From NCBI GenBank assembly GCA_041661005.1, contig JBAZVG010000001.1, forward strand, positions 403,307-467,306: a stretch of DNA of 64,000 nt, in the 5' to 3' direction. The notes beneath the pieces are model-generated. The model ran no database searches and had not been told where the DNA came from. It was given only the letters and a program-made list of their open reading frames with translations. The position numbers were made by a program, and so were the translations under genes. Positions 8,761 to 64,000 of the stretch are shown here, piece after piece. Source of the DNA: Minisyncoccota bacterium. GTDB lineage: Bacteria; Patescibacteriota; Minisyncoccia; Phycocordibacterales; UBA9973. Position 1 is the first letter of the stretch. Every line of letters starts with the position of its first letter.

Positions 8761-8792
8761 ACCATAATAGACACGACCGTGTCTATTATGGT
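8761..8792. promoter_or_regulatory. 32-bp palindrome ACCATAATAGACACG-AC-CGTGTCTATTATGGT, 13 nt upstream of the PaaX-like gene start
   Basis: Perfect 15-bp arms. TATTAT inside the right arm is a possible -10. A near-identical copy lies 3' of the same gene at 9391..9422. Confidence 0.55.
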
Positions 8793-8804
8793 AACATATA
8801 AAAT

Positions 8805-9365: not shown

Positions 9366-9390
9366 ATATTTTTTCTTATATTTCATAAAT

Positions 9391-9422
9391 ACCACAATAA
9401 CCACGGCCGTGTCTATTGTGGT
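9391..9422. promoter_or_regulatory. Second copy of the paralog-1 palindrome, ACCACAATAACCACGG-CCGTGTCTATTGTGGT, 26 nt past the stop
   Basis: About 27/32 identical to the 8761..8792 site, itself an imperfect palindrome. It sits between convergent genes. Confidence 0.5.
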
Positions 9423-9452
9423 ATTAGTTTAACACCGCTAACATACTCCCTA

Positions 9453-24342: not shown

Positions 24343-26487
24343 GTGAAAAACCAAATGAATAAAAAAGAGGGCCTCGCCCGTAGGCCTATGGCCGAGGGCA
24401 TTATATCCATTACCTCCAAAGGCACTGGATATGTTGCCATTGGGGACGCAAAAAACAAACAAGACCCAGAAATTGATTCCAAGTATTTGAATACTGCCCT
24501 GCATGGAGATCTAGTCGAAATTACCCTGCATCCAAAAGGTAAAGCAAGACAGACAGCTGAAGTTTCAAAAATAATCACCCGCGCGAAAATGCGTTTTGCT
24601 GGAGTTTTAGAATTAGACCCCACCAAGAACGGGGCAAGAAACAATATATTTTTCTTGAAACCAGATGATACAAAAATGTACACGGATATTCTAATACCCG
24701 AGGGAGAATTAAACGGAGCAAAGGCGGGACAAAAAGTCTTTGTGGAAATAACTTCTTGGACAGATGCAAGCAAAGCTCCTGTCGGAAAAGTAATCAAAAT
24801 TTTAGGAAATCCGGGAGATAATGACACAGAAATGCATTCTATCGCAATGGAAAAAGGATTCGATTCAGAATTACCCCAAGAAGTAGAGAACGAGGCCAGA
24901 GAAATAAAAATACGCGGTATAAAAGAAAGTGATTACGCATCGCGTCGCGATTTCAGAAAAACTTTAACTTTCACCATTGACCCCTCAGATGCAAAAGATT
25001 TCGATGATGCAATTTCGTTTCGAGTTATTAATTCCCCTCTTGAGGGGTGGCCGAAGGACGGGGTGGAAAATGCATCCACCTCCCTCCGACAAAAGTCGGA
25101 GTACTCCTCAAGAGGAGAATTGTACGAAATAGGCATACATATAGCAGACGTATCGCATTATGTAAAAATAGGCAGTGCTTTGGATGTCGAAGCGCGAGAA
25201 CGAGGAACTTCGGTTTATTTAGTGGATAGGACAATACCGATGTTGCCCGAGACATTATCAAATGATCTATGTAGCCTGGTACCCAATAAAGACAGACTCA
25301 CCATGAGCGCAGTTTTTATTATGGACAAAAATGCCAAAGTAAAAAATGAATGGTATGGCGCTACCATTATACATTCTCAAAAAAGATTTACTTATGAAGA
25401 AGCCGAGGAATCCCTCGGCCATAGCCCTACGGGCGAGGCAATCAAAAAACTGAATGCTCCCCTGCATAAAGAATTGTCTATTTTAAATGATCTGGCAAAA
25501 AAATTAACAAAAGAAAGATTTGATAACGGCGCCATATCGCTTGATCAGGAAGAAGTAAAATTTGTATTAGATAAGAATGGAACACCGATAAAAGTAATCA
25601 CAAAAGAGCGCGGAGATTCTAATAGATTAATTGAGGAATTCATGCTTCTTGCCAACAAAAGAGTGGCGAAGATTTTATCTCCCCAATCTTCCCGCAGTCA
25701 CCTATCTGGGAAAGAAGAAAATAATAATATTTCTATATACCGCGTGCATGATCTACCAAGCAAGGAAAAGATGGCAGATCTGGCATTTTTTCTGCGAAGT
25801 TTGGGACATAAAATATCTTTAGTAAACGGAGTCATACCCAGTCATGAAATAAATAATCTTCTAAAAAAATTAGAAGGAAAGAATGAGGAAAACACAGTGA
25901 ATCGCGCGGTGATACGCTCCATGGCAAAAGCGATTTATTCAACCAAAAACATCGGGCACTACGGACTCGCTTTTGAGCATTACACGCACTTCACTTCCCC
26001 GATCAGACGATACCCGGATATCATAGTGCACAGATTACTTGCCAATTTTCTTGCCGGTAAAAAAGTCGGCAAAGAAAAATTGCTTGAATATGAAAAAATC
26101 GCCAGAATTTCATCTGAACAGGAAAAACGCGCTTCCGATGCTGAACGAGCTTCCATCAAATATAAACAAGTTGAGTATATGTCGAAGCGTCTAGGAGAAA
26201 ATTTCGAGGGAATCATAAGTGGAATTACAGAGTGGGGCATTTATGTAGAAGAAACAGAAACGAAATGCGAAGGACTAGTGCGAATACGTGACATGAGCGA
26301 TGATTTTTATGTTTTTAATGAAAAGAAAATAGAATTAGTTGGACAAGGGAAGAAGTCCCGACGCCCTTCGGGGTCGGGATCCCGATCGCAAGCATCGGGA
26401 AAAAAATATCGACTAGGCGATCGTGTTAAGATAAAAGTAAAAGGAACTGATCTGGAGAAAAAAACAATAGACTACGTTTTATTATAG
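24343..26487 (+). CDS. rnr: Ribonuclease R (RNB family, VacB)
   Basis: RNB catalytic motif IGIHIADVSHYV and a C-terminal S1 domain. Carries a roughly 92-bp in-frame repeat-element insertion at 25029..25120. Confidence 0.85.
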   Translation: MKNQMNKKEGLARRPMAEGIISITSKGTGYVAIGDAKNKQDPEIDSKYLNTALHGDLVEITLHPKGKARQTAEVSKIITRAKMRFAGVLELDPTKNGARNNIFFLKPDDTKMYTDILIPEGELNGAKAGQKVFVEITSWTDASKAPVGKVIKILGNPGDNDTEMHSIAMEKGFDSELPQEVENEAREIKIRGIKESDYASRRDFRKTLTFTIDPSDAKDFDDAISFRVINSPLEGWPKDGVENASTSLRQKSEYSSRGELYEIGIHIADVSHYVKIGSALDVEARERGTSVYLVDRTIPMLPETLSNDLCSLVPNKDRLTMSAVFIMDKNAKVKNEWYGATIIHSQKRFTYEEAEESLGHSPTGEAIKKLNAPLHKELSILNDLAKKLTKERFDNGAISLDQEEVKFVLDKNGTPIKVITKERGDSNRLIEEFMLLANKRVAKILSPQSSRSHLSGKEENNNISIYRVHDLPSKEKMADLAFFLRSLGHKISLVNGVIPSHEINNLLKKLEGKNEENTVNRAVIRSMAKAIYSTKNIGHYGLAFEHYTHFTSPIRRYPDIIVHRLLANFLAGKKVGKEKLLEYEKIARISSEQEKRASDAERASIKYKQVEYMSKRLGENFEGIISGITEWGIYVEETETKCEGLVRIRDMSDDFYVFNEKKIELVGQGKKSRRPSGSGSRSQASGKKYRLGDRVKIKVKGTDLEKKTIDYVLL
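25029..25120 (+). repeat. GC-rich multi-hairpin mosaic element, copy A (in-frame within rnr)
   Basis: ATTCCCCTCTTGAGGGGTGG...GACGGGGTGGAAAATGCATCCACCTCCCTCCGACAAAAGTCGGAGTACTCCTCAAGAGGAGAAT. Five successive hairpins. Homologous copies at 56870, 63309(-) and 63812. Confidence 0.75.
26357..26400 (+). repeat. Two adjacent GC-rich hairpins inside the rnr C-terminal tail
   Basis: CCCGACGCCC-TTCG-GGGTCGGG and TCCCGAT-N8-ATCGGGA. They encode SRRPSGSGSRSQASG. Confidence 0.35.
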
Positions 26488-48338: not shown

Positions 48339-50528
48339 TCACATAGAGAGCAATTCCAAAAATTCTCTTTCATTTACTATTTTTACTCCTAATTTTTCCG
48401 CAGTTTTAAGTTTAGAACCCGGCTCAACTCCAGCGACCACATAAGAAGTATTTTTTGAAACTGAACCCACGACCTTTCCACCCAGAGAAATTATTTTTTC
48501 TTTGGCTATCTCGCGCGACATAAGAGAAAGCGTCCCCGTCAAAACAAAATTAAGTCCTCTTAATTTACCTGTCTTCTTTGCAAGATTCTCTTGCATTTTT
48601 TCTACAACCACACCGTTTCTTTTTAATTTGTCTATAAAATTTATATTATTCTTGTCATGAAAAAAATCAGAAAAGCTCTTTGACACGGCTGGTCCTATAT
48701 TTTCTATGCTATCTACCTCGGATGTTTCAGTTTTCGTGGAGGAGATTAATTTATCTAAAGTTCCGAAATGTTCCGCCAAATCTCGAGCAGTCTCCTCCCC
48801 CACATGCAATATTCCAAGAGCCCAAAGAAATTTTGAAAAAAGAATTTTCTTTTTGTTATTTATTTCTTTTATAATATTCTCCGCTGATTTTTCTCCAAAG
48901 CGCTCTAGGGGCGCGATGTCTTCTTTTAGAAGTGTGAAAATATCCGCCGCGTCAGTGATCAATCCTTCGTCTTTAAAACGTCTTAAAATTTTTGGGCCTA
49001 GTTCGTATATTTCAAACACTGACACAAAATGTTCTAAATATCTTTCATTCTTGGCCGGACACTTAGAATTAGCACAATAATAGGCGACAGAAGGCGAAGC
49101 TGGAGAAAGGTTTTCGAGCTGGTCTGGCCGGGGTTTGGGGCCCCGGGGAACCGAGGACCCGAGAAAATCTTTCTCCAGCTTCGCCCCTATATCTCTCTTC
49201 TCCACTATTCCCCCACAAGCAGGACAACCCGTCGGCATTTTAAATTTTTTCTCTTTGCCGGTGCGCATACGAGTCAACACTTCCACGACTTTTGGAATCA
49301 CGTCGCCAGCTTTTTCTATCACTACAGTATCCCCGATTCGTAGATCAAGACGATCTATTTGATCCATATTGTGCAAGGTGGCTTTTGATACCGTAGAACC
49401 TGCGACGAGCGTCGGTTTAAAAATTGCCAGTGGCGTCAAAACTCCAGTCCTGCCTACATTGACCAAAATTTCTTTTATCACAGTCGTTGCTTTCTCAGCC
49501 GGATATTTGAATGCCACCATATAACGCGGAGCTTTACCGACAACGCCTAAAACCTCTTGCAATTTCAAATCATCCACCGATATTACTATGCCATCCGTGC
49601 CATATGAAAAATCAGATCTTATTTTTTCGAATTTTTTTATAAAATTCGCGACTTCATCCAAATTTTTACATAACGCCTCATTTTGTTCTACTTGAAAACC
49701 TAAATTTTTTAAAAAATTATGCTTGTCTGAATGAAGGCGCAAATTTGGTAAAGAATTCAAGGAGCCGTGGGTCCCCTGTCCTTTGTCTCCGAGGGCGAAG
49801 GCGGGAGAATTCTTTACCAAATTTGCGCCAACCAAATCAACCAAATCATAAGCAAAAAAATCCAGCTTCCTTTCAGCCGCCAATTTAGGATCCAACTGCC
49901 GTAGACTCCCAGCCGCCGCATTTCTGGTATTAGCAAAAAGAGGTTTGCCTTCTTTCTCATTTTTAAGATTCAATTTTGATAAAGTTTTTTTAGAAATCAA
50001 AGCTTCTCCACGAACTTCGAAATACTTTGGAAATGGTTTCTTTAATATTAACGGAATCGAATTTATAGTTTTAAGATTCTCAGTAATGTCTTCACCCACA
50101 AAACCATCTCCCCTTGTGGCGCCACGCACAAATTTTCCATCTTCATAAATTAACGAAACCGCCAGTCCATCGAATTTAACTTCGCAGAAATAACTCACCC
50201 CGTGTGCTTGCAGAGGTAAAAGTTTTTTGATTCTTTTCTCCCAATCCTGAAGCTCCTCGTAAGAAAAAACATCATTCAAAGAAAGCATCCTGCTGTTGTG
50301 CTTCACTTTCACAAATTTATCAAGCGGTTTTCCAGCTACTCTATTCTCCGGCGCATTGACATCGTCAAATTCAGGATGCTCTTCTAGAAGCATTTTAAGC
50401 TCGCGAGTGAGAGAATCATAAACGTCATCAGTAACGTTCGGAGCATTTTCTGTGTGATAGGCATTCCGCAATCGCGCGATTTCGCTTCGCAATTTTTCTA
50501 TTCTCTTTTTTGCTTCAAGCCTGTCCAT
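48339..50528 (-). CDS. ligA: NAD-dependent DNA ligase LigA
   Basis: Adenylation domain, Cys4 zinc finger, HhH and C-terminal BRCT. Carries a 93-bp in-frame palindromic insertion between the zinc-finger Cys pairs. Confidence 0.9.
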   Translation of the reverse strand: MDRLEAKKRIEKLRSEIARLRNAYHTENAPNVTDDVYDSLTRELKMLLEEHPEFDDVNAPENRVAGKPLDKFVKVKHNSRMLSLNDVFSYEELQDWEKRIKKLLPLQAHGVSYFCEVKFDGLAVSLIYEDGKFVRGATRGDGFVGEDITENLKTINSIPLILKKPFPKYFEVRGEALISKKTLSKLNLKNEKEGKPLFANTRNAAAGSLRQLDPKLAAERKLDFFAYDLVDLVGANLVKNSPAFALGDKGQGTHGSLNSLPNLRLHSDKHNFLKNLGFQVEQNEALCKNLDEVANFIKKFEKIRSDFSYGTDGIVISVDDLKLQEVLGVVGKAPRYMVAFKYPAEKATTVIKEILVNVGRTGVLTPLAIFKPTLVAGSTVSKATLHNMDQIDRLDLRIGDTVVIEKAGDVIPKVVEVLTRMRTGKEKKFKMPTGCPACGGIVEKRDIGAKLEKDFLGSSVPRGPKPRPDQLENLSPASPSVAYYCANSKCPAKNERYLEHFVSVFEIYELGPKILRRFKDEGLITDAADIFTLLKEDIAPLERFGEKSAENIIKEINNKKKILFSKFLWALGILHVGEETARDLAEHFGTLDKLISSTKTETSEVDSIENIGPAVSKSFSDFFHDKNNINFIDKLKRNGVVVEKMQENLAKKTGKLRGLNFVLTGTLSLMSREIAKEKIISLGGKVVGSVSKNTSYVVAGVEPGSKLKTAEKLGVKIVNEREFLELLSM
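49092..49184. repeat. 93-bp GC-rich palindromic element inserted in-frame in the ligA zinc-finger loop
   Basis: Perfect 17-bp terminal inverted repeats GGCGAAGCTGGAGAAAG / CTTTCTCCAGCTTCGCC flanking a GC-rich core. Encodes AKLEKDFLGSSVPRGPKPRPDQLENLSPASP. Confidence 0.75.
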
Positions 50529-52861: not shown

Positions 52862-53734
52862 CTAAAAATTAAAAAGATTTAATTCAAAAATAAATGCCAA
52901 AAATGTTCCTAGAACCAAAAATGGAGCAAATGGAATTTCGCTTTTCATCCCCATACTGTTTATTCTACCATTTTTTGCCAGCCTCGCCGAGTCTAGGCGG
53001 GCCAGCCTCGCCGAGTCTAGGCGGGAAAGAACTACAAGCGTCACCCCGACGACAGCTCCAGACCAGAAAGCCATCACCAAACCAGATAGAGCAACAGAAA
53101 TACCGAGCAACCATCCGATGCCTAGAGAGAGCTTTGCATCCCCCAGCCCCATCCACCTGCCACGAGATATAAACCAAAAGAAAGCAAACGGGAATGCTAT
53201 GAACACACCAGAAAGAAATTCCCAAACAGTCGGGATTTGAAAATATAAAACGATAGGATTGGAAGAATCTAAAAAATTATTATGGAAAAAAAATAAACCC
53301 AGAAATGCCAGAACGCCGAAAATAAGAGAAAGCATGTCCGGAATTATTTTATGTTTCAGATCATAAGTCGCTATGACCACAAGCAGTGAAAACGCAGTTG
53401 CATAGTAAACATAAATGATGCCGAAAGATTGAATGTCTGCCAGAAAAATATCCTGGAATTTCAAAAACAGCAAAGCGAAAACGAGGCCTGTTGTAAATTC
53501 AACCAAAGGATATTGCATGGAAATTTTGGTTTTACAATTCCGGCACCTCCCCCCGAGCCATAGAAAGCTAACGACAGGTATGAGATCATACCAATGGAGT
53601 TTATTTTGGCAAGACATGCAGGCGCTCCGCCCGCCGAGAGATCTTTTTGTGTTGAGTCGATAAATTACAACATTCAAAAAACTGCCAATAGTGAGACCGA
53701 GAACAAAGAAAAAAAACCCAAGTAATAAAATCAT
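52862..53734 (-). CDS. pilD: Prepilin peptidase (A24 family)
   Basis: N-terminal Cys4 (CMSCQNK...CRNCKTK) and conserved catalytic Asp regions (DLKHKIIPD, GLGDAKL). Contains a 24-bp x2 in-frame tandem repeat. Confidence 0.85.
   Translation of the reverse strand: MILLLGFFFFVLGLTIGSFLNVVIYRLNTKRSLGGRSACMSCQNKLHWYDLIPVVSFLWLGGRCRNCKTKISMQYPLVEFTTGLVFALLFLKFQDIFLADIQSFGIIYVYYATAFSLLVVIATYDLKHKIIPDMLSLIFGVLAFLGLFFFHNNFLDSSNPIVLYFQIPTVWEFLSGVFIAFPFAFFWFISRGRWMGLGDAKLSLGIGWLLGISVALSGLVMAFWSGAVVGVTLVVLSRLDSARLARLDSARLAKNGRINSMGMKSEIPFAPFLVLGTFLAFIFELNLFNF
52977..53024. repeat. Perfect 24-bp tandem duplication (GCCAGCCTCGCCGAGTCTAGGCGG x2) in-frame within pilD
   Basis: GC-rich. Encodes LARLDSAR twice near the PilD C-terminus. 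Confidence 0.7.
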
Positions 53735-56272: not shown

Positions 56273-56704
56273 TTAACTAGCAGCACAAACAGTTGCATCA
56301 GCACCCTTGCCGCCCGTCCTAACTCCAGAGAAACCAGCACTGTCAACACAGAATATTGTTCCATCATTCAAAGTTGCCTCTGCAGCCCAAGCACTGTATG
56401 GCGCAGCAGCTGGAACATCACAATTAACCGCACCAGCAGCAGGAATCTGAGCGTTTACAGCTACAATCAGTCTATTTAATTGACCAGCAGCACCACACAG
56501 TGTTGATGGATAATTTCCACTGGAATCAACAACCAATTCAGCCTCCGCTCTCATGGAAGTCATACTTGCCTTTGCACTTGCATCTTTACCCTTTGTTCTA
56601 GCCGTATTAAGCGACGCCAAAACGACCGAAGCCAAAATACCAATGATAGCCACGACCACCAAAAGCTCAATCAATGTAAAACCTTTCTTTAAATTCATTT
56701 TCAT
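56273..56704 (-). CDS. pilA: Type IV major pilin
   Basis: KKGFTLIELLVVVAIIGILASVVLASL prepilin motif. 143 aa with a C-terminal Cys pair. Confidence 0.8.
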   Translation of the reverse strand: MKMNLKKGFTLIELLVVVAIIGILASVVLASLNTARTKGKDASAKASMTSMRAEAELVVDSSGNYPSTLCGAAGQLNRLIVAVNAQIPAAGAVNCDVPAAAPYSAWAAEATLNDGTIFCVDSAGFSGVRTGGKGADATVCAAS

Positions 56705-56869
56705 AATTAAATTCTAAACTAAATTAATAATAATTAATAATGCAATTTCGACTCCCGCCTGCTCCCATAGGGCGGACAGGTATTTTTAATACAACTATTA
56801 TAACATTATGCAAAAACATTTATGCAACCAAGTTATCCACACCCCTTCGCCAAGGCTACGGAGGTGCAG

Positions 56870-57033
56870 GCAGGGTAGTGATTCCCCTCTTGAGGGGTGG
56901 CTCGCTTACGAGACGGGGTGGAAGAATTCCCTCACCCCTTGCTTTCCCCTCTCCATTCAAAAGAATGGAGAGGGGTTGGGGAGAGGGTATCCACCTCCCT
57001 CCGACCTAGGTCGGAATACTCCTCAAGAGGAGA
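56870..57033 (+). repeat. GC-rich multi-hairpin mosaic element, copy B (expanded, intergenic pilA/pilC)
   Basis: ATTCCCCTCTTGAGGGGTGG-CTCGCTTACGAG-ACGGGGTGGA, an extra CCCCTCTCC...GGAGAGGGG module, then TCCACCTCCCTCCGACCTAGGTCGGAATACTCCTCAAGAGGAGAAT. Confidence 0.75.
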
Positions 57034-57042
57034 ATTAAAATT

Positions 57043-58251
57043 CTAGCTAATACTTCCTGCTAGATTGTAAATTGGCATGAGGACAGACACGAGCAATATT
57101 CCAACGCCCAAGCCCAAAACCACGATCATCACCGGCTCGATGAGTCCTACCAGCGTATCCACCGCATCATCCACTTCACGCCGATAAAAATCAGTTAAAG
57201 TTTTCAAAATAGACACGAGAGAACCCGTCTCCTCGCCCACCTGAATCATCTGCACCAGAATGCCGGGTATTTCAACTTTATGTTTCGCAAATGCGACAGA
57301 GAGCGTCAATCCGGATTTCACCCCATCCGCGACTTCCGCTAAAATGCCTTTATACACACGACTGCCGACAACTTCAGCGGTAATGTCTATCGCTCGAACG
57401 ATAGGAACTCCGGAGCTCAACATGGTGCTCAGGTTGTCTGATATTCGAGAAAGATAAAGCTTTTTATACAAATTGCCAATAGCGGGCATGGAAAGTTTCA
57501 ATGAATCGAGATATTGTTTCCCCTTTTCGGTCATAGCCATTTTCCAAACCCAAATACCGAGCAAGACTAAAAAAATCAAAAAGAAAAAACCATAGTGGAC
57601 GAACAGATTTGAAATTGCTATGACTACCTTGGTGTAAAAAGGAATATCTTGACCGGAATCTAAAATAATCTCAGAAAGTTTTGGAATCACCACCACAAAC
57701 ATCAAAGTCATAACCACGAAAAAGGTAACAACGACGAAAACTGGATAGATAAGGGCATTTCTGGTCTTGGAGGTAAGAGAATATTGGCGATCTAAATATT
57801 CCGCCAAATATATAAACGTCTGATTGAGTTTTCCGGTTTCCTCTCCCACTTTGACCATGTTTATATAAAAATTCGAAAATACATCTGGATGTCTTGCGAG
57901 TGCTCCAGAAATGGAAATACCAGCTTGGAGATCGTCACTGACGGCAGTCAATTTGCGACCTAAAAGCTTGTTTTCTGTATTGGCCGCCAACATGGTAAAA
58001 GATTTCAAGGCAGAAACTTGCGCCTCAAACAACGTCGCGATCTGACGTGAGAGAATGACCACATCCTTATTCGAGACTCTCTCAAAAAAAGAGATCTGGA
58101 AAATTGATTTACTTTCCTTTTCGTCTTTGATGGAAATAATCACAAGCCCCCTTCTCTGAAGCCCAGAGACCGCCATGTCATGACTCGGCGCGTCGATTTG
58201 CCCTTCTTTTGTTGTCCCTTCAGAATCTATTGCTTTGTATTTAAAAAGCAT
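57043..58251 (-). CDS. pilC: Type IV pilus assembly platform protein PilC (GspF family)
   Basis: 402 aa with two GspF-type domains and three TM helices. Confidence 0.85.
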   Translation of the reverse strand: MLFKYKAIDSEGTTKEGQIDAPSHDMAVSGLQRRGLVIISIKDEKESKSIFQISFFERVSNKDVVILSRQIATLFEAQVSALKSFTMLAANTENKLLGRKLTAVSDDLQAGISISGALARHPDVFSNFYINMVKVGEETGKLNQTFIYLAEYLDRQYSLTSKTRNALIYPVFVVVTFFVVMTLMFVVVIPKLSEIILDSGQDIPFYTKVVIAISNLFVHYGFFFLIFLVLLGIWVWKMAMTEKGKQYLDSLKLSMPAIGNLYKKLYLSRISDNLSTMLSSGVPIVRAIDITAEVVGSRVYKGILAEVADGVKSGLTLSVAFAKHKVEIPGILVQMIQVGEETGSLVSILKTLTDFYRREVDDAVDTLVGLIEPVMIVVLGLGVGILLVSVLMPIYNLAGSIS

Positions 58252-58255
58252 ATAT

Positions 58256-59317
58256 TTATATCATTCGCTCAAGCCCCTTTGGATTGAGCGAATATTGATA
58301 AGCGTTTTCAATGGAAATCTCTCCAGAGCGCACTAGTTCCATAAGTGAATGGTTCAAGTCTATCATCCCAGACTCACTTCCTGTTTCTATAACCACATCT
58401 ATTTCATGCGTGCGTTTTTCACGAATTAGATTTGACACCGCGCTATTATTCAAAAGCAGTTCGTAGGCCGGAATGAGCCCGCCGGTGATTCTAGGGATCA
58501 ATCTTTGAGAAAAGATGCCGAGGAGTGATGACGCGAGCTGAGTGCGAATCTGGTCTTGTTGGTCACCTGGAAATGAATCGATTATTCTGTCTATCGTTTG
58601 AGAAGCATTATTGGTATGCAGTGTCGAAAGCACGAGGTGTCCGGTCTCGGCCGCGGTCACCGCAGTCGCCACAGTCTCCGGCGTGCGCATTTCTCCAATC
58701 ATTATCACATTTACGTCTTCGCGAAAAACCGACTTGAGCGCCACATGAAAATCATGGGTATCGATGCCCACTTCACGCTGGTTGATTATTGATTTATTTG
58801 GAGCATACACGTGTTCGATCGGATCTTCGATTGTTATGATATTGCGCGCTTGTTCATTGTTGATTAAATCAACCATTGCGGAAAGAGTGGTTGATTTACC
58901 TTGTCCGACAGGTCCAACTACCAGAAAAAAACCTTGTTTCTTGCGAGCCAAATCAGCAATGATAGGAGGCAAATGTAACTCCGCTATGGTTTTTACTTTT
59001 GGAACTAGACGAAACACTATATTGATCAAGCCTTTTTGAAAAAAAGCATTGCCACGCAATCGCGCTTCTCCGCGAAAATCATAAGAAAAATCCGCTTCCT
59101 GATTTTCCACAAATTTATCGATCTTCGCCTTAGGCAATATTTCACTCAAGATTCCCATCGTATCGTCATCAGTAAAAACTGTATGTTTTACGAGAAATAT
59201 CAGCTCTCCGGCCACGCGAATTACCGGCACACGTCCAGTGCCTATATGTAAATCCGATCCACCTTCGCGGATAACGTTCAAAATTAGCTCTTCAAGTATC
59301 TTTTTATGATCTGTCAT
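58256..59317 (-). CDS. pilT: Type IV pilus retraction ATPase PilT
   Basis: Walker A VVGPVGQGKSTT and GspE/PilT His box, about 350 aa. Confidence 0.85.
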   Translation of the reverse strand: MTDHKKILEELILNVIREGGSDLHIGTGRVPVIRVAGELIFLVKHTVFTDDDTMGILSEILPKAKIDKFVENQEADFSYDFRGEARLRGNAFFQKGLINIVFRLVPKVKTIAELHLPPIIADLARKKQGFFLVVGPVGQGKSTTLSAMVDLINNEQARNIITIEDPIEHVYAPNKSIINQREVGIDTHDFHVALKSVFREDVNVIMIGEMRTPETVATAVTAAETGHLVLSTLHTNNASQTIDRIIDSFPGDQQDQIRTQLASSLLGIFSQRLIPRITGGLIPAYELLLNNSAVSNLIREKRTHEIDVVIETGSESGMIDLNHSLMELVRSGEISIENAYQYSLNPKGLERMI

Positions 59318-59364
59318 AATGTTTTAATTTTCCGTTTCTTCGACGGAACGCCGTTGAGGGCGAT

Positions 59365-59766
59365 TTATTTTGGAACTACGACTTTTTTTTCTAAAATACT
59401 TACAACCTGACTGATAACTTCGAGCGGGGTGGAATTCGCTTTAATGATATAGCCCGCTACTCCCAGACTATTGCCTCGATCGATATCTGACTGTTGACTT
59501 TTGTTGGACAAAATTACTTTTACAGAATCCGGAGATAATTTATCGACATTTACTTTTTCCAACATTTCAAAACCGTCCATTTCTGGCATGATTATATCTA
59601 CCAGCACAAGATTAGGCTTGAGTCCGTCTTTGATTTTCTCTATAGCTTGCAGGCCACTTGTCGCCGTGTGAACTTCAAAGTTATTCTGGCTGAATTTGAG
59701 CGCATACATATCCAAAAGAAAACTATCGTCATCAACTATTAAAATTTTTCTTTTTTCTTTTTCCAT
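59365..59766 (-). CDS. Stand-alone response-regulator receiver domain (CheY/PilH-like)
   Basis: ILIVDDD, VLVDIIMPEMDG and K-containing REC motifs. Confidence 0.75.
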   Translation of the reverse strand: MEKEKRKILIVDDDSFLLDMYALKFSQNNFEVHTATSGLQAIEKIKDGLKPNLVLVDIIMPEMDGFEMLEKVNVDKLSPDSVKVILSNKSQQSDIDRGNSLGVAGYIIKANSTPLEVISQVVSILEKKVVVPK

Positions 59767-59820
59767 ATATTTTATAAAATGAGCTAAACCCCTGACTTAA
59801 TTATACTACACAATAATTCA

Positions 59821-61560
59821 TTATTCATTCTCGTTACTGAAATTATACACCTCTGTGAAAGGAATAACACCTTCCAAAGATTTGAGCATGGCATCTTCTT
59901 TCATCATAAGCATACCATGTCTGCGAGCCACTTTGTATATGTCTCCATTGGTGGGACTTTTTAATATTACACCCTGCATTTCCTTGTCGATTTTAAACAT
60001 TTCAAAAACAGCGATGCGACCTCTCGTGCCCGAAGGACATTCGCCAGAGGGAACTGTATCATACATCTCGTTTTTAGATTTGATATCTTTTTTAAATTCT
60101 TCCGGCAAATCTTTCATCTGTTGTTCAATTTGGATTTTAATGCTCTCATCTATAGGCACGAGCTTGCGTGAAGAAGGACAAGTCATACGAGCAAGACGTT
60201 GAGCAATAGATAAAATCAAGGTCGGCGCAATCAAATATGGATCGACACCCATATCGACCAAGCGGGGCACCGCGCCAATAGCATTGTTGGTGTGAAGCGT
60301 AGAAAGCACCAGGTGCCCGGTCAAAGCCGCTTGAATGGCAAGCTGAGCTGTTTCCTTGTCGCGTATCTCTCCAACCATTATTATATCCGGGTCTTGACGT
60401 AAGATAGAACGGAGTCCTGAAGCAAAAGTGTATCCTATCTCTGGCATCATCTGTGATTGATTTATGTCAGGCATGTGATATTCCACAGGATCCTCGAGCG
60501 ACACGACATTGCTTTCTTCTTTATCTAGTTCATTCATCATTGAATACAAAGTTGTGGACTTTCCCGAACCAGTCGGACCAGTAATCAAAATAAGTCCATA
60601 AGGCTGTTTCAGCGCTTCTCTGATCATGGAGAGATTTGTCTCGGATAAACCTAATTGATCCAAAGGCTTGACTCCTTTTTCGGAATCCAGTATACGCATT
60701 ACGACTTTCTCGCCATAATATGCCGGCATAGTAGAAACACGAAAATCAATCTTTCGTCCATCAATGTTGGCGGAAAACGACCCGTCTTGAGGTTTTCTCT
60801 TTTCATCCAACCTGAGTTTGGCCAGAATTTTTATACGCGCCACTACTCCGCTGTAAATATTTGGAGGCAATACTATCGTAGTGTGCAAACTTCCATCCAC
60901 TCGAAAACGGACTTTTACTTTTTCTCCGGTAAATTCTATGTGTATATCAGAAGCGCCCCCTTCCAAGGCATTGCGCAATATGACAGCGACAATCTTTATG
61001 ACCGGCGCGTCTTCCACTATCTTTGTCTCTTCGCCTTTTTTTATATTTTTTATCTCTTTGCTTAGATTTTCTTCGTTCAAACTTTTTGCATGATCTTCGC
61101 TCAATTCGTTGAGCGCTTCTTTTACTTGATTGCCTATACCTTTGTAGGTATGCATCAGATTTTCATAATCACTTTTAGAAATTAAATATATTTTGAATGG
61201 GATGCCAAGCTTGGCGGAAATAAACTGCAACGCATCAAGCGCCTGTATATCTTCTCCGTTTGTCACTCCTACTTCCAACACTCCTTCCCGCATCTCAATC
61301 GGGGCAAAATGATAGTGTATCGCCGAATCTTCCGAAATATATTTCAAAACATCAAAAGATGAATCTTCGATTTTTACTTTCTTTATCGGCATTTGCAAGT
61401 ATTTTCCTTTTATCTCTAGAATTTTTTCTTCTGTTATTCCAGATTCAATCAATGCTTCATCGATGTCTCCCCCGTGTTTCTCCTGCGCGCGACTTTTGAT
61501 CTCACCTATCTGGCTCTTCTCAATTATATTTTCTTTTACTAGCTCCTCTAAAAAACTCAT
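59821..61560 (-). CDS. pilB: Type IV pilus assembly ATPase PilB (GspE family)
   Basis: N-terminal T2SE_N domain, Walker A ITGPTGSGKSTT, Cys4 cluster (CPSSR...CPSG). Confidence 0.9.
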   Translation of the reverse strand: MSFLEELVKENIIEKSQIGEIKSRAQEKHGGDIDEALIESGITEEKILEIKGKYLQMPIKKVKIEDSSFDVLKYISEDSAIHYHFAPIEMREGVLEVGVTNGEDIQALDALQFISAKLGIPFKIYLISKSDYENLMHTYKGIGNQVKEALNELSEDHAKSLNEENLSKEIKNIKKGEETKIVEDAPVIKIVAVILRNALEGGASDIHIEFTGEKVKVRFRVDGSLHTTIVLPPNIYSGVVARIKILAKLRLDEKRKPQDGSFSANIDGRKIDFRVSTMPAYYGEKVVMRILDSEKGVKPLDQLGLSETNLSMIREALKQPYGLILITGPTGSGKSTTLYSMMNELDKEESNVVSLEDPVEYHMPDINQSQMMPEIGYTFASGLRSILRQDPDIIMVGEIRDKETAQLAIQAALTGHLVLSTLHTNNAIGAVPRLVDMGVDPYLIAPTLILSIAQRLARMTCPSSRKLVPIDESIKIQIEQQMKDLPEEFKKDIKSKNEMYDTVPSGECPSGTRGRIAVFEMFKIDKEMQGVILKSPTNGDIYKVARRHGMLMMKEDAMLKSLEGVIPFTEVYNFSNENE

Positions 61561-61641
61561 CCTATCAGAAATTTTATTAGTAATTTTGTTTGATGTTTTT
61601 TAAACATATGTTGAATTTCTAACGAAACACGCGTATTTGAA

Positions 61642-61983
61642 TTAAAATGCTACATCAGCGCCAAGCGGAGCGAATGGGTTTATTCGACCTTCATTGCCAT
61701 CTGGCACGAGCGTGATGCTCGAATCATGCAAGCTTAGAAACGCGCTATTGGAAAAAATAGCATCATTTAATTTTATATTTTTAACACTCAAGAGTAGATT
61801 TAAAAATTCTTGAGTAACTGCCGGATCATTTTTTTTTGTTATCGCGCCGGGTGTTGCTGGAACACTAGGAGAAGAAACCAAAGTTGCTTTATTATCGGGA
61901 GATGGTTTTATGAAAAAGATATAAATCAAAACAAAGGATATACCGATTGCAATAAATATTATTATGTTTTTTATTTTTGGCAT
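61642..61983 (-). CDS. PilP-like small membrane protein (putative)
   Basis: N-terminal TM helix. C-terminal GRINPFAPL resembles the PilP RxPF motif. The position after pilO fits. Confidence 0.35.
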   Translation of the reverse strand: MPKIKNIIIFIAIGISFVLIYIFFIKPSPDNKATLVSSPSVPATPGAITKKNDPAVTQEFLNLLLSVKNIKLNDAIFSNSAFLSLHDSSITLVPDGNEGRINPFAPLGADVAF

Positions 61984-61984
61984 T

Positions 61985-62599
61985 TTAGTTTTTCAACCAA
62001 TAAGTTTTAATTTTAAAATCGTATTTATAAGAATCTGGAGATGGAGAACCAGTGGCTGTCTTGGTTCCGCTACTTGTGTCGGACGAAAATTGAACCGAAG
62101 ATATGTCTACGATTCGGAGATTGCCTTCCAGGGCTCTCGTAAAGTTGAGAAAATTATCATAGGTGCCTGTCGTAGAAAACGACAGATCCCAGACTCCATA
62201 ATCTCTGTTTGGAGTTTGAACTGCTCCGCCTCCTTTTACAACTGCTCCACCAGAAGAAGTAGTGCTTTTTGCAGAATCAGTGGGACTGTATGTAACATCT
62301 TTTAACGCCATTCCAAAAGGCAAAGCTACTTGTTCCATCTCAAGAATCAAACGTATGTTGTCAATATTTTCTGGTAAAAGTTTTTGAATTTTTAACAGGT
62401 CATTCTTGTTGATAGCATTAAACTTAGCGGTCAATTTATCCCGCTCGTTTTCAAGCGCCTTGGAATTAGAAAGAGCTTGATCATAAGACTCCACCTGCCC
62501 ACGCAGTTCATTGACATCTTTATAAAACGGATTGGAAAATACAAAAAATACAGTAACGCTTATCCCTATTAAAATGATCGGCATAATAAATCTCATCAT
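61985..62599 (-). CDS. pilO: PilO-like pilus assembly protein
   Basis: N-terminal TM helix plus coiled coil. Position in the pilN-pilO-pilP order. Confidence 0.5.
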   Translation of the reverse strand: MMRFIMPIILIGISVTVFFVFSNPFYKDVNELRGQVESYDQALSNSKALENERDKLTAKFNAINKNDLLKIQKLLPENIDNIRLILEMEQVALPFGMALKDVTYSPTDSAKSTTSSGGAVVKGGGAVQTPNRDYGVWDLSFSTTGTYDNFLNFTRALEGNLRIVDISSVQFSSDTSSGTKTATGSPSPDSYKYDFKIKTYWLKN

Positions 62600-62604
62600 A
62601 AAAA

Positions 62605-63246
62605 TTAGCTTTCTTGCGTTAAGATCGTTTGCTTATAATCAACAAAAGATGGATCGACTGAAAATTCTAAATCAAAAAGGACATTACCCTTGTCATCCAG
62701 AGTAAGATTGGAAAAAACAGGATCGATAAAATTCTTACCTTCGTCCTTGGTGGTAAAAAGATCGGATTGTAGAGCCACCGAACGATAGCCGACTGCAGTG
62801 CCACTCATTTTAATAAGAACCTTGGAATTTTTTGTGTCTTTTTCATTCCCGCCTTGACTCGACGAGTCAGGTCCAAAACTATAACTAAATCTAGTGTAAC
62901 GAACAGTCTTCATAGTAATGGCAGAAAGCGCCTCAAAAATAGGAGTTATCGCAATATGTTTGGACAAGATTTCAGTTGACGCCCGCAAGCGCCTGTCTAA
63001 AACCTGAAGCTCGGTTATCTTGGAAGGCTCGAAACGATTTCTGGCTAAAGTTAAATCATTTTCCATTTTGACAATGTCTTTCGCTAAAATACCTTTATAG
63101 AAAAAAAGTCCACCGGTCGCGAGCAACACAGAAAACAAAATAAAAAAAGAAATAACCGTAAAAAAACCAATAGATCGCGTCGTAACGACACGCTCTACCA
63201 CCATCGGTTTTTTAGGGATAAATGATGTTTGGAAATTCGGCTCCAT
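62605..63246 (-). CDS. pilN: PilN-like pilus assembly protein
   Basis: N-terminal basic segment and TM helix (IGFFTVISFFILFSVLL) followed by a coiled coil. Confidence 0.5.
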   Translation of the reverse strand: MEPNFQTSFIPKKPMVVERVVTTRSIGFFTVISFFILFSVLLATGGLFFYKGILAKDIVKMENDLTLARNRFEPSKITELQVLDRRLRASTEILSKHIAITPIFEALSAITMKTVRYTRFSYSFGPDSSSQGGNEKDTKNSKVLIKMSGTAVGYRSVALQSDLFTTKDEGKNFIDPVFSNLTLDDKGNVLFDLEFSVDPSFVDYKQTILTQES

Positions 63247-63308
63247 ACTACACTACTATTATATTATAAAAACAAATTATAATGAAGTAAAATGTGTATA
63301 ACTCAACA

Positions 63309-63419
63309 TCCACCCCGCATTCATTCTCCTCTTGAGGAGTACTCCGACCTAGGTCGGAGGGAGGTGGAAATGCATCCACCCCGTCTCGGATTACCGAGCC
63401 ACCCCTCAAGAGGGGAATT
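63309..63419 (-). repeat. GC-rich multi-hairpin mosaic element, copy C (minus orientation)
   Basis: The reverse complement reads ATTCCCCTCTTGAGGGGTGG-CTCGGTAATCCGAG-ACGGGGTGGATGCATTTCCACCTCCCTCCGACCTAGGTCGGAGTACTCCTCAAGAGGAGAATGAATGCGGGGTGGATG. It supplies the last codons and the TGA stop of the DUF559 gene. Confidence 0.75.
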
Positions 63420-63876
63420 TTAAGACACCTTTCCTTTTGTATATTGTTTCTAATACAAATTGATAAACACTAGCCAAATTTTTCTTAACTTCTATATCAA
63501 GTATCCGAACTACTTCTAAATTTAGATCTTTCATGAAAGCATCTCTTTCTGCATCATACTCCATTTTATTATCGTGGCTTGAACCATCTATTTCAAATAC
63601 CAATCCCAGTTCGGGAACAAAAAAGTCCACTATATAATTACCTATTACAACTTGTCGATCTATATCAAAGCCTAATTTATTTTTATCCTTGAATGTTTGC
63701 CAAAACAAAACTTCTGACAAATTGCCCGATTTTCTTAAATCTCTTGCTCTGTCCGTTAAAAGTTTGTTTTTTGGAATTTCCCAATAGGGATACAAGGACT
63801 TTGGATCCCATAATTCCCCTCTTGAGGGGTGGACTTTGTAATCAAAGGACGGGGTGGATGAATTCTTCTTGGGCAT
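63406..63876 (-). CDS. DUF559 (Vsr-like endonuclease fold) protein
   Basis: LRKSGNLSEVLFWQ...DRQVVIGNYIVDFFVPELGLVFEIDGSSHD...AERDAFMKDLNLEVVRI DUF559 pattern. Both ends overlap repeat-element copies. Confidence 0.6.
   Translation of the reverse strand: MPKKNSSTPSFDYKVHPSRGELWDPKSLYPYWEIPKNKLLTDRARDLRKSGNLSEVLFWQTFKDKNKLGFDIDRQVVIGNYIVDFFVPELGLVFEIDGSSHDNKMEYDAERDAFMKDLNLEVVRILDIEVKKNLASVYQFVLETIYKRKGVLKFPS
63812..63866 (+). repeat. GC-rich multi-hairpin mosaic element, copy D (partial left half)
   Basis: ATTCCCCTCTTGAGGGGTGG-ACTTTGTAATCAAAG-GACGGGGTGGATGAATTC. Lies inside the annotated 5' end of the DUF559 ORF. Confidence 0.7.
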
Positions 63877-64000
63877 TTAGTTATTTTGGCTTAGTCAGTA
63901 ACTACACCAAATCTATTTGTGTGAAATTAATTAAAGTTAGAGAGAAAAACAAAAATATAATAGAAAAAAGGTTTTAGAAATGTAATCAATAGTAGTAGAG

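Follow-up and report, generated by a model that had tools for sequence, protein, structure and literature searches.

The window, the whole 64,000-nt stretch of DNA analysed here, contains four copies (A to D) of a GC-rich hairpin element, one of them within an RNase R-like gene and two overlapping a gene for a DUF559 (Vsr-like PD-(D/E)XK) endonuclease. These features are located as follows.

24355..26487, plus strand: RNase R-like gene, host of copy A
25030..25121, plus strand: copy A, full element, in-frame in the RNB domain of the RNase R gene between DFDDAISF and IHIADVSHY (H1 25034-47; H2 CC-GAA-GG 25051-57; tail 25058-67; TCCACCTCCC 25075-84; H4 25085-25100; H5 25104-17)
56836..56880, no strand assigned: possible degenerate module remnant (TCCACACCCC ... 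GGAGGTG), by relaxed pattern match only, just upstream of copy B
56881..57036, plus strand: copy B, full element into which an additional hairpin module is nested, lying in the spacer that separates pilC from a pilin gene (H1 56884-97; H2 CTCG-CTTA-CGAG 56901-12; tail 56913-22; nested module 56927-56987; TCCACCTCCC 56990-99; H4 57000-15; H5 57019-32)
63308..63316, minus strand: second copy of CGGGGTGGA, from the alignment with locus L119
63323..63419, minus strand: copy C, full two-module cloverleaf element (H1 63402-15; H2 CTCGG-TAAT-CCGAG 63385-98; tail 63375-84; H3 partner GGAGGTGGA 63360-68; H4 63342-59; H5 63326-39)
63406..63876, minus strand: DUF559 endonuclease gene, 156 aa (Pfam PF04480 at 1.8e-22)
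63812..63858, plus strand: copy D, solo module (AATT 63812-15; H1 CCCCTCTTGAGGGG 63816-29, then TGG; H2 ACTTTG-TAAT-CAAAGG 63833-48; tail ACGGGGTGGA 63849-58)

The repeating unit is a module of ~45 nt, composed of AATT, a constant hairpin H1 (CCCCTC-TT-GAGGGG), TGG, a variable hairpin H2 and the tail ACGGGGTGGA. Two inverted modules without a gene make up an element of ~95 nt, and copies A, B and C are of this kind. The motifs flanking H2 occur non-randomly within the window: GACGGGGTGGA is matched five times with at most one mismatch (0.22 expected) and GGGGTGGA eight times (0.91 expected). The elements fold as a cloverleaf or four-way junction, with z scores of about -7 to -8 for copies A, B and C: as DNA, copy A has z = -6.7, copy B forms a cloverleaf with an extended H3 arm at z = -8.0, and copy C forms a four-way junction on either strand (z = -7.0 and -6.6), its RNA fold having z = -7.3. 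The H2 sequences differ in 48 of 51 tails-inward module pairs; since an element's two H2-type arms are almost never alike in sequence and cannot cross-pair, each self-folds, and the element becomes a cloverleaf or four-way junction, either in single-stranded DNA or in a branched cruciform. Modules occur in two opposite architectures, with the heads pointing outward in most phyla but inward in the window and in its relatives among the Patescibacteria, an arrangement not predicted by the simple picture of a transposon's terminal inverted repeat. Only AT is conserved at both element ends; a clear target-site duplication was looked for at these ends and not found, the AT being indistinguishable from the inverted repeat itself. 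The window and the syntenic locus L119 differ in module content: a 66-nt module-2 segment of copy C, bounded by a 9-nt direct repeat consisting of the CGGGGTGGA pair, is present in the window and missing from L119 in their alignment. Closely related genomes differ through gain and loss of elements. The nested module type of copy B was also found at L036, L054, L056, L066, L086 and L096. Modules nested within other modules, and tandem arrays, occur as well.

The start region of the DUF559 gene crosses copy D, whose antisense reading supplies residues ~6-22 (SSTPSFDYKVHPSRGEL), and its stop codon TGA is the H1 loop of copy C (...KFPS*). A module-encoded start (M.KKNSSTPS...HPSRGE) and stop (KFPS*) are found in 41 homologues. 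An identical protein (P0003), on an 813-kb contig, is annotated as a "DUF559 domain-containing protein" of Candidatus Paceibacterota bacterium. In the AlphaFold model the core has a pLDDT of 81-93 over residues 41-100 and 111-150, with a dip to 69 at residues 101-110, while residues 1-23, which include the copy D-encoded segment, fall below 50 and are predicted to be disordered. Its fold is best matched by 3HRL and by the homing endonuclease I-Bth0305I (3R3P), the latter being the nearest characterised structure. DUF559 has been placed together with Vsr and I-Bth0305I (PMC3424549).

In all four window copies the segment between GGGGTGG and ACGGGGTGGA is self-complementary, and the hairpins of copies B, C and D lie where the initial annotation had placed them. 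That annotation gave the right flank as GACGGGG; the leading G is the last stem base in copies B and C, and the constant flank is therefore ACGGGGTGGA. Copy A had been called degenerate, which does not hold, as CCGAAGG is a recognised DNA mini-hairpin (PMC13037366) with the commonest loop of the family, GAA. The DUF559 gene flanked by copies C and D and the in-frame position of copy A had escaped the initial annotation. A scan of GTDB species genomes for the exact flanks, with the insert left unconstrained, yielded at least 118 stretches; the window and the GTDB matches listed together give 139 copies with 96 distinct inserts. This pattern-found set contains 52 different stem arms, and 71% of its inserts pair perfectly over 4 bp or more, against 5.6% of shuffled inserts. 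When the register is set purely by geometry, counting from the outside in and without fitting a structure, Watson-Crick pairs make up 88-96% at depths 1-5 and include all four pair types, against 26-44% in partner shuffles and at most 32% in shifted registers. For an ungapped alignment of the 32 distinct 13-nt inserts, the covariation score is 0.320, which none of 500 shuffles reaches (0.096 +/- 0.016); 38 cells have changes on both sides, compared with 11.5, and slid registers score at most 0.059. In an independent set collected protein-first, via DUF559, 64% of 91 distinct inserts form stems of 4 bp or more, compared with 7% of shuffles. A test of coincidence on more copies, set beforehand in the initial annotation, thus returned statistically supported covariation that was replicated in the protein-first set, and its claim that pairing is kept while the primary sequence changes now extends to more than 180 distinct H2 hairpins across both sets. 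The stems are mostly perfect and wobble pairs are rare; the non-Watson-Crick stem cells on the G-rich strand comprise 12 G:T and 6 A:C.

Conservation of the element is also visible in the RNase R orthologue pair formed by copy A and L077, in which the element is 92.4% identical and the flanking coding sequence 74.8% (p = 1e-4). All differences between the two elements fall in H2 or in loops, and H2 itself reads CC-GAA-GG in one and CGT-GAA-GCG in the other, each arm of the latter being one base longer. The elements evolve more slowly than the surrounding coding DNA. Because pairing is maintained despite sequence change, the element is not a neutral relic, as had been proposed from the window alone. 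H2 is a sequence-free, structure-constrained arm of the ~45-nt DNA module; its compensatory changes may have arisen through selection or through hairpin-templated mutation.

The loops of H2 bear on whether DNA or RNA is the conserved form; most are of the C-GNA-G and GCGNAGC kinds, which make very stable DNA mini-hairpins. C-GNA-G is found in 38 of the 96 inserts (5.9 expected) and its complement in 7, and GCGNAGC in 13 (0.4 expected), with GNRA loops showing no enrichment (3 of 96, 2.6 expected) and UNCG loops absent from all 96. The protein-first set repeats this pattern, with C-GNA-G in 41 against 4 for the complement and GCGNAGC in 11 against 0. DNA hairpins of the d(GCGAAGC) type melt at about 70-76 C and the RNA form at 39 C; for GCGAAAGC, the RNA melts at 39 C and the DNA at about 76 C (PMC13037366). 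Such a strand-specific loop preference needs a single-stranded form. The preference for GNA tracks the G-rich strand of each module and so falls on opposite physical strands at the two ends of one unit, where a single transcript would hold one "right" and one "wrong" hairpin. Relative to neighbouring genes, module orientation is near random overall (40:28, 37:28 and 42:45); in a Bacillota MAG the modules show 12:1 co-orientation with genes, which fits either an RNA role or a lagging-strand ssDNA role. The element has no Rfam match, even at E values up to 10, and no terminator-like T-run was found 3' of any window copy. These observations favour DNA structure over a structured transcript as the basis of H2 conservation. 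Among the options offered by the initial annotation, a recombination or nuclease substrate or a protein-recognised cruciform is accordingly preferred, and a structured transcript is disfavoured by loops, orientation and Rfam.

By MAG labels the modules extend over more than ten bacterial phyla, although some contigs, for instance those assigned to Simkania or Burkholderiales, may have been binned wrongly. Most copies are non-coding, and 27 of 113 (24%) lie in long open frames, mostly antisense, the coding copies being in differing frames and strands. In-frame hosts include PheT, UvrB, PurD, Tgt, RNase R and a DNA methylase; the RNB domain of copy A's host is matched over 371 residues, compared with 326 positions in the model. 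Among the matches listed, 12 of the 119 loci found by pattern contain a DUF559 gene; its distance from the module is at most about 130 nt in 11 of them and ~600 nt in one. Approached from the protein, a module lies no more than 350 nt away at 61 of 66 DUF559 loci; 45 of the loci are flanked by modules on both sides, and 33 of those 45 show the order module > ORF < module. Relative to the ORF, both module orientations are found. Modules number 4.69 per kb in the vicinity of the DUF559 gene and 0.17 per kb further off. At most module-rich loci, such as the 16 of the Bacillota MAG, no DUF559 gene was seen in the 8 kb covered. The H1 type CCCCTC-TT-GAGGGG accompanies all 14 DUF559 proteins at least 62% identical to that of the window; more distant proteins have CCCCTCC-NNN-GGAGGGG in 33 cases, the TT type in 5 and neither exact type in 28, mostly with another H1-like hairpin (CCCCTC, 2-6 nt, GAGGGG), and the two types never share one locus. 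DUF559 clades track module subtypes, i.e., the two have co-diversified. The module is an inverted repeat bracketing genes of one DUF559 clade in Patescibacteria and at least ten other phyla. DUF559 proteins of different phyla are 52-62% identical, which together with the patchy phylum distribution indicates horizontal spread. A 14-fold enrichment of "DUF559 domain-containing protein" among genes between inverted repeats (PMC9881135) hints at independent support for the linkage of modules to DUF559.

The element appears to represent a novel type of selfish DNA, and on balance it is probably a repeat that behaves much like REP/REPIN, MITEs and Rickettsia palindromic elements and whose single-stranded or cruciform fold is recognised by the DUF559 nuclease, an enzymatic link that we infer. 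The nuclease would read the constant H1 and GGGGTGG boxes together with the shape into which H2 folds on the G-rich strand, and would nick or cleave at the module; such cutting would help modules to be copied or moved, much as in REP/REPIN-RAYT systems or in homing. Copies without H2 pairing would cease to propagate, which would account for the compensatory changes in surviving lineages, and hairpin-templated repair during replication probably helps to re-establish pairing. To our knowledge, PD-(D/E)XK nucleases by themselves are not known to perform transposition, and in an alternative reading of the linkage the DUF559 gene could be a passenger or a preferred target.

The REP/BIME/REPIN elements with their RAYT (Y1 HUH) partners are similar in being short GC-rich imperfect palindromes in many dispersed copies, as singlets and inverted doublets, with a single nuclease-type gene between inverted copies, strand-specific ssDNA hairpins as presumed substrate, and a CGTC-like tag (CCCCGTC here, next to the H2 stem in most module copies). 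They differ in that the flanked gene here is a Vsr-like DUF559 nuclease and not a Y1 HUH transposase, the module sequence is common to more than ten phyla where REPs are particular to their species, one copy in four lies inside a gene and so is not "extragenic", and the module combines a constant with a hypervariable hairpin, its doublet being a cloverleaf. Rickettsia palindromic elements, likened here by description and not by sequence, are also palindromes of ~100 nt inserted in-frame in housekeeping genes whose proteins tolerate the peptide, but the present modules extend beyond one genus, are endonuclease-linked, and occur as solo modules, doublets and nested inserts. MITEs (Correia/NEMIS) share terminal inverted repeats, ORF-less derivatives beside ORF-bearing units, and locations between genes and at operon borders; unlike them, the present units have no recognised transposase and no demonstrable target-site duplication beyond AT, and their internal arms are self-complementary rather than mutually complementary. 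Integron attC sites likewise combine variable sequence with conserved structure and short conserved boxes at the base only, and recognition would again be of a folded single strand with defined polarity, but the module consensus lacks GTTRRRY-type core boxes, the copies examined have no cassette context, and the partner is a nuclease and not a tyrosine recombinase. Vsr-like/EDxHD homing endonucleases, among them I-Bth0305I, the best characterised structural match of the window's DUF559 protein, and free-standing homing endonuclease genes share with the present system a small, horizontally spreading endonuclease gene that occurs inserted in conserved genes such as hsdS, whereas the DUF559 gene has no intron or intein context and its flanking hairpin repeats also disperse without it. 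The mobile GC clusters and double-hairpin elements of fungal mitochondria are GC-rich hairpin modules in an AT-rich genome, and share with the modules in-frame gene insertion, nesting and uncertainty over the mobilising enzyme; they belong to eukaryotic organelles, and the likeness implies no homology.

It is rather unlikely that the modules are host-beneficial DNA sites without active selfish mobility, with DUF559 as a domesticated partner as proposed for REP/RAYT, serving in nucleoid organisation, as replication or priming signals or as recombination hotspots. Each DUF559 protein is on few contigs only, like single-copy RAYTs, the element is conserved at the nucleotide level, and CCGAAGG and GCGAAGC are known as hairpins that serve for recognition at single-strand initiation sites (PMC13037366), all of which would suit such a role. 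In-frame insertion in the essential PheT, UvrB, Tgt and RNase R is hard to square with it, however, as are nesting and tandem arrays, presence and absence between close relatives, and the signs of horizontal spread. A structured RNA, be it a small RNA, an mRNA-stabilising 3' structure like some REPs or a cis-regulator, with H2 as an RNA helix, is improbable: the fold is equally significant as RNA, and the single-strandedness implied by the loops, the co-orientation in the Bacillota MAG and the lean to G:T would agree with it, but it is opposed by DNA-type loops whose RNA hairpin melts far lower, by near-random orientation relative to genes and either orientation relative to the DUF559 ORF, by the strand flip between unit ends, by the mostly antisense coding copies, and by the lack of Rfam matches and T-runs. 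Mutation without structural selection, with intrastrand template switching or quasi-palindrome correction copying arm onto arm, seems equally improbable as a full account. The symmetric change between copy A and L077 is easier as a templated event than as two independent indels, and perfect stems dominate; this process nevertheless leaves unexplained why the insert was initially a hairpin in every lineage, the one-strand enrichment of the most stable DNA loops, the slow evolution of the non-palindromic GGGGTGG, ACGGGGTGGA and remaining element relative to adjacent coding DNA, and the nuclease gene association. As it needs hairpin formation in vivo, it complements a structural role and does not replace it. 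That the pairing is coincidental or imposed by protein coding, as might be suspected with only four window copies, of which B and C share most of their stem and D and A are translated, is refuted by the geometric-register, covariation and protein-first results, and the predominance of non-coding copies also speaks against it.

Apart from copy A, the RNase R-like gene of the window holds further GC-rich palindromic inserts at 24371-24398, 25412-25439 and 26354-26401.

Four copies of a GC-rich mosaic element were found in the window, which has a G+C content of 37.7%, and an open reading frame containing a DUF559 domain lies between the last two of them (all four copies are given from direct reading of the sequence):

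25030-25121, plus strand: copy A, variable segment CC-GAA-GG
56881-57036, plus strand: copy B, variable segment CTCG-CTTA-CGAG
63323-63419, minus strand: copy C, variable segment CTCGG-TAAT-CCGAG
63812-63858, plus strand: copy D, first half of the element only, variable segment A-CTTTG-TAAT-CAAAG-G
63406-63876, minus strand: DUF559 ORF (PF04480, 1.8e-22), between copies C and D

All four copies begin with AATT-CCCCTCTTGAGGGG-TGG, followed by the variable segment and then by ACGGGGTGGA. This module of ~45 nt comprises a constant hairpin, H1, and a hypervariable hairpin, H2, with two direct GGGGTGG boxes, one on each side of H2. The full elements (A, B and C) carry an additional, diverged and inverted module, which reads TCCACCTCCC, hairpin H4, then GTA-CTCCTCAAGAGGAG-AATT. 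By direct reading, H1 (CCCCTC/GAGGGG) differs from H5, the head of the second module (CTCCTC/GAGGAG), by a single compensatory pair, so that each forms a perfect local hairpin; the outer stem formed between H1 and H5 contains two conserved mismatches, C.A and G.T. A cloverleaf or four-way junction is predicted for copy C (on either strand) and for copy A (z = -6.6 to -7.3), with an outer stem of ~17 bp, head against head, and the arms H2, H3 and H4, the H3 arm being GGGGTGGA paired with TCCACC(T)CC. Copy B is predicted to adopt the same fold (z = -8.0) with an additional hairpin module nested in its H3 arm (56927-56987), and this nested type was found again in other Patescibacteria. In 48 of 51 module pairs with tails inward, the two H2-type arms show no sequence relationship, which forces each to fold locally instead of pairing with the other; the same pairs led to rejection of the idea that H2 is a specificity "guide" with matching copies at both ends. 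A type IV pilus cluster (pilin, PilC (T2SSF), two T2SSE ATPases and assembly genes, all on the minus strand) lies within positions 56870-63866 and is bordered by the GC-rich repeat copies. Copies B and C are inverted, with 49-nt arms at 56990-57038 and 63320-63368 that are 96% complementary and bracket the whole of this 6.3-kb cluster, a geometry which could allow inversion of the pilus operon.

The initial annotation proposed, from copies B, C and D, that pairing in H2 is kept while its sequence changes. Direct reading confirmed the three hairpins with two small corrections: the right flank, taken as GACGGGG, includes a G that is a stem base in B and C, and copy A, called degenerate, is a minimal hairpin with a GAA loop. 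One genome per GTDB species was scanned with the pattern CTCTTGAGGGGTGG-N(3-30)-ACGGGGTGG, leaving the insert (the segment holding H2) unconstrained, and at least 118 stretches matched. Among the matches listed, the window included, there are 139 copies with 96 distinct inserts, which use 52 different stem arms; 71% of these inserts can form a perfect stem of 4 bp or more, compared to 5.6% of shuffled inserts. When inserts were simply registered geometrically from the outside in, with no structure fitting, 88-96% of the positions at depths 1-5 formed Watson-Crick pairs, against 26-44% when partners were shuffled and at most 32% in shifted registers, and all four pair types occur at each of these depths. 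In the 32 distinct inserts of 13 nt, aligned ungapped, the covariation score was 0.320 (0.096 +/- 0.016 in shuffles, none of 500 reaching 0.320, and at most 0.059 in slid registers), with 38 cells changed on both sides as opposed to 11.5. RNAalifold analysis of 27 full elements detected four H2 pairs with 8-12 double changes apiece and one H4 pair with 4; the outer stem and H3 do not vary among these elements and carry no covariation information. A second set of 91 distinct inserts, reached through the DUF559 protein, contains stems of at least 4 bp in 64% of inserts (7% in shuffles). H2 is a hairpin conserved in structure and free in sequence, and the covariation proposed from three copies is clearly supported with more of them. 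Protein coding was rejected as the cause of the conservation, as the majority of copies do not encode protein and those that do are read on both strands and in several frames.

The initial annotation also suggested that either a folded RNA or a single-stranded DNA structure is under selection; of the two, the DNA structure is favoured by the evidence. The H2 loops are mostly GAA, GTA and GCA closed by a C-G pair. In the 96 distinct inserts among the matches listed, C-GNA-G is found in 38 (5.9 expected) and its complement in only 7, GCGNAGC in 13 (0.4 expected) and GCGNNAGC in 6 (0.3 expected); loops favoured by RNA are not enriched in the same inserts (cGNRAg in 3, with 2.6 expected, and UNCG in none). 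The protein-first set agrees, with 41 occurrences of C-GNA-G against 4 of the complement, and 11 of GCGNAGC against none. GNA loop motifs are known as "mini-hairpin DNA", the DNA form of which melts at ~70-76 C and r(GCGAAAGC) at 39 C, and CCGAAGG is the mini-hairpin of the RSF1010 ssiA site, which is bound by the RepB' primase (PMC13037366). The H2 hairpin of copy A is this same CCGAAGG. These loop preferences argue for a hairpin formed in single-stranded DNA, by the G-rich strand. The GNA preference tracks each module's own G-rich strand and therefore falls on opposite physical strands at the two ends of one unit, a switch that is expected of symmetric DNA ends and unexpected of a single transcript.

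A transcribed structure is also disfavoured by the near-even orientation of modules, at 40:28 and 37:28 relative to neighbouring genes and 42:45 overall relative to the local majority gene strand in 8-kb loci. Solo modules in a termite-gut Bacillota MAG (WRLT01) are co-oriented with genes 12:1 (p = 0.003, with gene strand as a proxy), a bias that fits lagging-strand-template exposure or transcription alike. In this MAG (L005, L017, L022, L030, L038, L047 and other loci), AAAG-rich spacers and extra CAGACGGGGTGGAAAG repeats follow the solo modules. At the gathering threshold, the sole Rfam match in the window was the tRNA at 46639, and a search of 63250-63900 at E-values up to 10 returned two chance-level matches, neither on a module. 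An intrinsic terminator was rejected: positions 56600-64000 contain 11 terminator-like sites, no one of which falls on copy B, C or D, and where a terminator has its T-run the tail behind H2 reads ACGGGGTGGA.

The ends of the gene between copies C and D are built from the modules. The first ~22 residues of its product are the antisense translation of copy D, and its stop codon is the TGA in the H1 loop of copy C; these module-encoded ends are kept in 41 homologues (71-87% identity), which start with M.KKNSSTPS...HPSRGE and end with KFPS*. In the predicted structure the module-encoded N-terminus is disordered and the nuclease core is mostly confident. The window protein is identical to a MAG protein in NCBI (P0003) encoded on an 813-kb contig, which places the window in a Candidatus Paceibacterota (CPR/Patescibacteria) genome; NCBIfam and PADLOC returned nothing for it further than "DUF559". 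It has the features of a DUF559/Vsr-like PD-(D/E)XK nuclease, namely the Pfam domain, a D...E-x-D...H core and a Vsr-like fold, with the catalytic-type residues D84, E95, D97 and H101 invariant in the 41 homologues. The sole homologue of solved structure detected by sequence search is 3HRL, an uncharacterised "endonuclease-like protein", which was also the best Foldseek match (E = 2e-6); next came the homing endonuclease I-Bth0305I, through its catalytic domain (3R3P, E = 6e-4), and, more weakly, the Vsr-like domains of AbaSI and PvuRts1I and Vsr itself. A survey of PD-(D/E)XK proteins placed VSR, DUF559 and I-Bth0305I in a single group (PMC3424549).

The module is coupled both physically and evolutionarily to this nuclease gene. 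Among the matches listed, a DUF559 gene is present in 12 of 119 pattern-found sources, within about 130 nt of the module in 11 and at ~600 nt in one; the loci bearing it belong to Patescibacteria and to MAGs labelled Brocadia, Nitrospirota, Cloacimonadota, Limisphaerales, Kapaibacterium and Fibrobacteria. In the reverse, protein-first approach, a DUF559 alignment was used as the query against metagenome contigs, yielding 80 loci that represent the closest relatives of module-linked DUF559 genes rather than DUF559 proteins at large. A generalised module lies at most 350 nt from the gene in 61 of the 66 loci for which both flanks were available and on both sides in 45, of which 33 have the arrangement module > ORF < module; modules number 4.69 per kb close to the gene and 0.17 per kb farther off. 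Protein clades follow module subtypes, in that an H1 of CCCCTC-TT-GAGGGG accompanies each of the 14 proteins sharing at least 62% identity with the window protein, and CCCCTCC-NNN-GGAGGGG (33) or other H1 hairpins accompany more distant proteins, the two main H1 types never occurring together at one locus. Units in most phyla are oriented heads-outward, resembling transposon inverted repeats; those in the window and its Patescibacterial relatives are heads-inward, with the ORF ends embedded in the modules. An independent survey recorded a 14-fold enrichment of "DUF559 domain-containing protein" in the genes located between inverted repeats and did not comment on it (PMC9881135).

Several further features of these loci were observed. 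The H2 "alleles" ACTTTG-TAxT-CAAAGG and CTCG(G)-...-(C)CGAG are found on either side of the DUF559 gene in the window (63812-63858 and 63385-63398) and in its close relatives L090, L120 and L124. Which allele lies upstream of the ORF and which downstream is the same in L120 as in the window and the reverse in L090 and L124, as would result if the ORF had inverted between the inverted H1 repeats. Tandem arrays of modules or fragments lie beside DUF559 genes (L166, 1822-2150; L146, 460-640; L162, 1-250), including seven head-to-tail reversed modules of 42 nt and repeated 18-nt CCACCCC-gcatttagaga units. In other phyla, units of DUF559 plus module are often in or beside restriction-modification genes: hsdS (L070, L127-L129, L149, L157, L139), hsdR (L166, L185) and DNA methylases (L068, L110). 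The recurrent hsdS site follows a conserved ...WFVDF(R/E)FP motif in mid-gene, splitting hsdS into two half-genes.

Modules are dynamic, become nested in one another, invade genes in-frame and are conserved at the nucleotide level. Copy A interrupts the RNB domain of RNase R in-frame, separating DFDDAISF from IHIADVSHY. Long open frames contain 27 of 113 evaluable modules, 20 in antisense and 7 in sense orientation, with PheT, UvrB, PurD, Tgt, a DNA methylase and an FAD oxidase as Pfam-confirmed host genes. The usual module-encoded peptide is ...SPLEEYP(KGEV/LGGGG)...STPS...ATPQEGN; a concatenated 61-aa query of the translated element gave only 2 weak matches among 5.8 billion proteins, with a word index ill-suited to such a query. 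Between the window and the syntenic metagenome locus L119, whole modules differ, and one indel, 66 nt long, has the 9-nt direct repeat CGGGGTGGA at its borders. The RNase R insertion is common to the window and MAG H52-bin032_1 (L077), where the element is 92.4% identical to copy A and the flanking coding DNA 74.8% (Fisher p = 1.3e-4), all differences in the element falling in H2 and in the H3 and H4 loops. Because it out-conserves the adjacent coding DNA in this comparison, the element is constrained or homogenised at the nucleotide level rather than a decaying relic. The same relative site within a protein family holds a module in several genomes or paralogues, as seen for RsmA/KsgA-like proteins (L023, L041, L114) and at T9SS C-terminal sorting domains (L033, L065, L085); such recurrence may reflect inheritance or site preference.

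By MAG label, the module is common to Patescibacteria (59 of the at least 118 loci, among the matches listed), Bacillota, Thermotogota, Bacteroidota relatives, Planctomycetota and others; this breadth is taken from labels, and single-contig cases could be mis-binned. One Thermotogaceae MAG contributes 15 loci and one Bacillota MAG 16, with copies on many contigs in each. The sharing of one small DNA module across these phyla implies frequent horizontal movement, and a module-pattern scan of viral contigs gave 0 matches and thus no sign of phage carriage.

The modules resemble several known systems in part. In REP/REPIN-RAYT systems the flanked gene encodes a Y1 HUH (IS200/IS605-like) transposase, whereas here it encodes DUF559 (PF04480), with a fold like that of 3HRL and I-Bth0305I. 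REPs are imperfect palindromes of 20-40 nt with GTAG or CGTC at the foot; CCCCGTC-[H2] is present on the C-rich strand of most copies here, and short variants (TGCCCGAAGGGCGGGG) are without it. REPs are also extragenic, unlike the 27 of 113 modules inside long open frames of real genes. Rickettsia palindromic elements share the in-frame insertion without gene disruption seen here in RNase R and the other six host genes, but membership in their sequence families is unlikely given a host range of Patescibacteria and others. As in MITEs, terminal inverted repeats are present (ATTCCCCTCTTGAGGGG / CTCCTCAAGAGGAGAAT, with 16 invariant outer-stem pairs in 27 copies). Where MITEs have a target-site duplication, only AT...AT is conserved at the borders, which is palindromic and inseparable from the inverted repeat; and where MITEs have a parent with the same ends and a known transposase, the ORF-bearing units encode DUF559 only. 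The likeness to homing endonuclease genes consists of the predicted fold similarity to I-Bth0305I and the insertion of units inside hsdS genes. A published description of the hairpin-module element was not found in the literature on DUF559, Vsr-like nucleases, REP and CPR palindromic elements.

Taken as a whole, a selfish element acting at the DNA level and linked to DUF559 is the reading we somewhat favour; that DUF559 itself is the enzyme acting on the modules is suggested more tentatively. The nuclease would recognise the constant boxes together with the folded H2, or the four-way junction of the doublet, and cut there, and cutting would drive module copying or movement in a REP/RAYT- or homing-like manner, such that lineages losing H2 pairing would cease to propagate. 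Hairpin-templated correction probably contributes, since the difference between copy A and L077 is a symmetric one-base addition to each arm. It is conceivable, though we would not yet rely on it, that this DUF559 clade, with its Vsr/EDxHD-like nuclease fold, is the dedicated enzyme of undescribed cross-phylum hairpin-module DNA elements, reading a constant box plus a shape-only DNA mini-hairpin or four-way junction, driving the spread of ~45-95-nt modules into intergenic DNA and, in-frame, into essential genes, and forming a PD-(D/E)XK counterpart of REP-RAYT. If so, the modules would be the first concrete, testable substrate for DUF559, a very common uncharacterised bacterial protein family, and a second, mechanistically different nuclease would be added to the REP/REPIN paradigm. 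The modules explain where some of the lineage-specific peptides inserted into essential proteins (RNase R, PheT, UvrB, Tgt, RsmA) of reduced CPR genomes come from, and they provide a natural data set for the DNA mini-hairpin loops favoured in vivo. For annotation, the DUF559 N- and C-termini here derive from the repeat, as do many of the short "insertions" in CPR proteins.

Other repeats were also observed in the window. The RNase R gene holds, in-frame, another GC-rich repeat, GCCTCGCCCGTAGGCCTATGGCCGAGGG, and its 96%-complementary inverse (24371-24398 and 25412-25439), encoding GLARRPMAEG and SLGHSPTGEA, and a third GC-rich palindrome lies close to the RNase R C-terminus (26354-26401). Short hairpin-prone islands of at least 62-75% G+C occur within long ORFs at 11759-11821, 11920-11948, 14332-14385, 29425-29457 and 49118-49168, which, in a genome of 38% G+C, suggests that several palindromic mini-insert families colonise coding DNA here. 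Two other families of perfect hairpins of ~35-40 nt, unrelated in sequence to the mosaic element, are paired around short genes (8754-8793 / 9384-9423 and 2641-2673 / 3369-3401). The 24-mer GCCAGCCTCGCCGAGTCTAGGCGG is perfectly tandem-duplicated at 52977-53024, with a 75% similar copy at 41165-41188.
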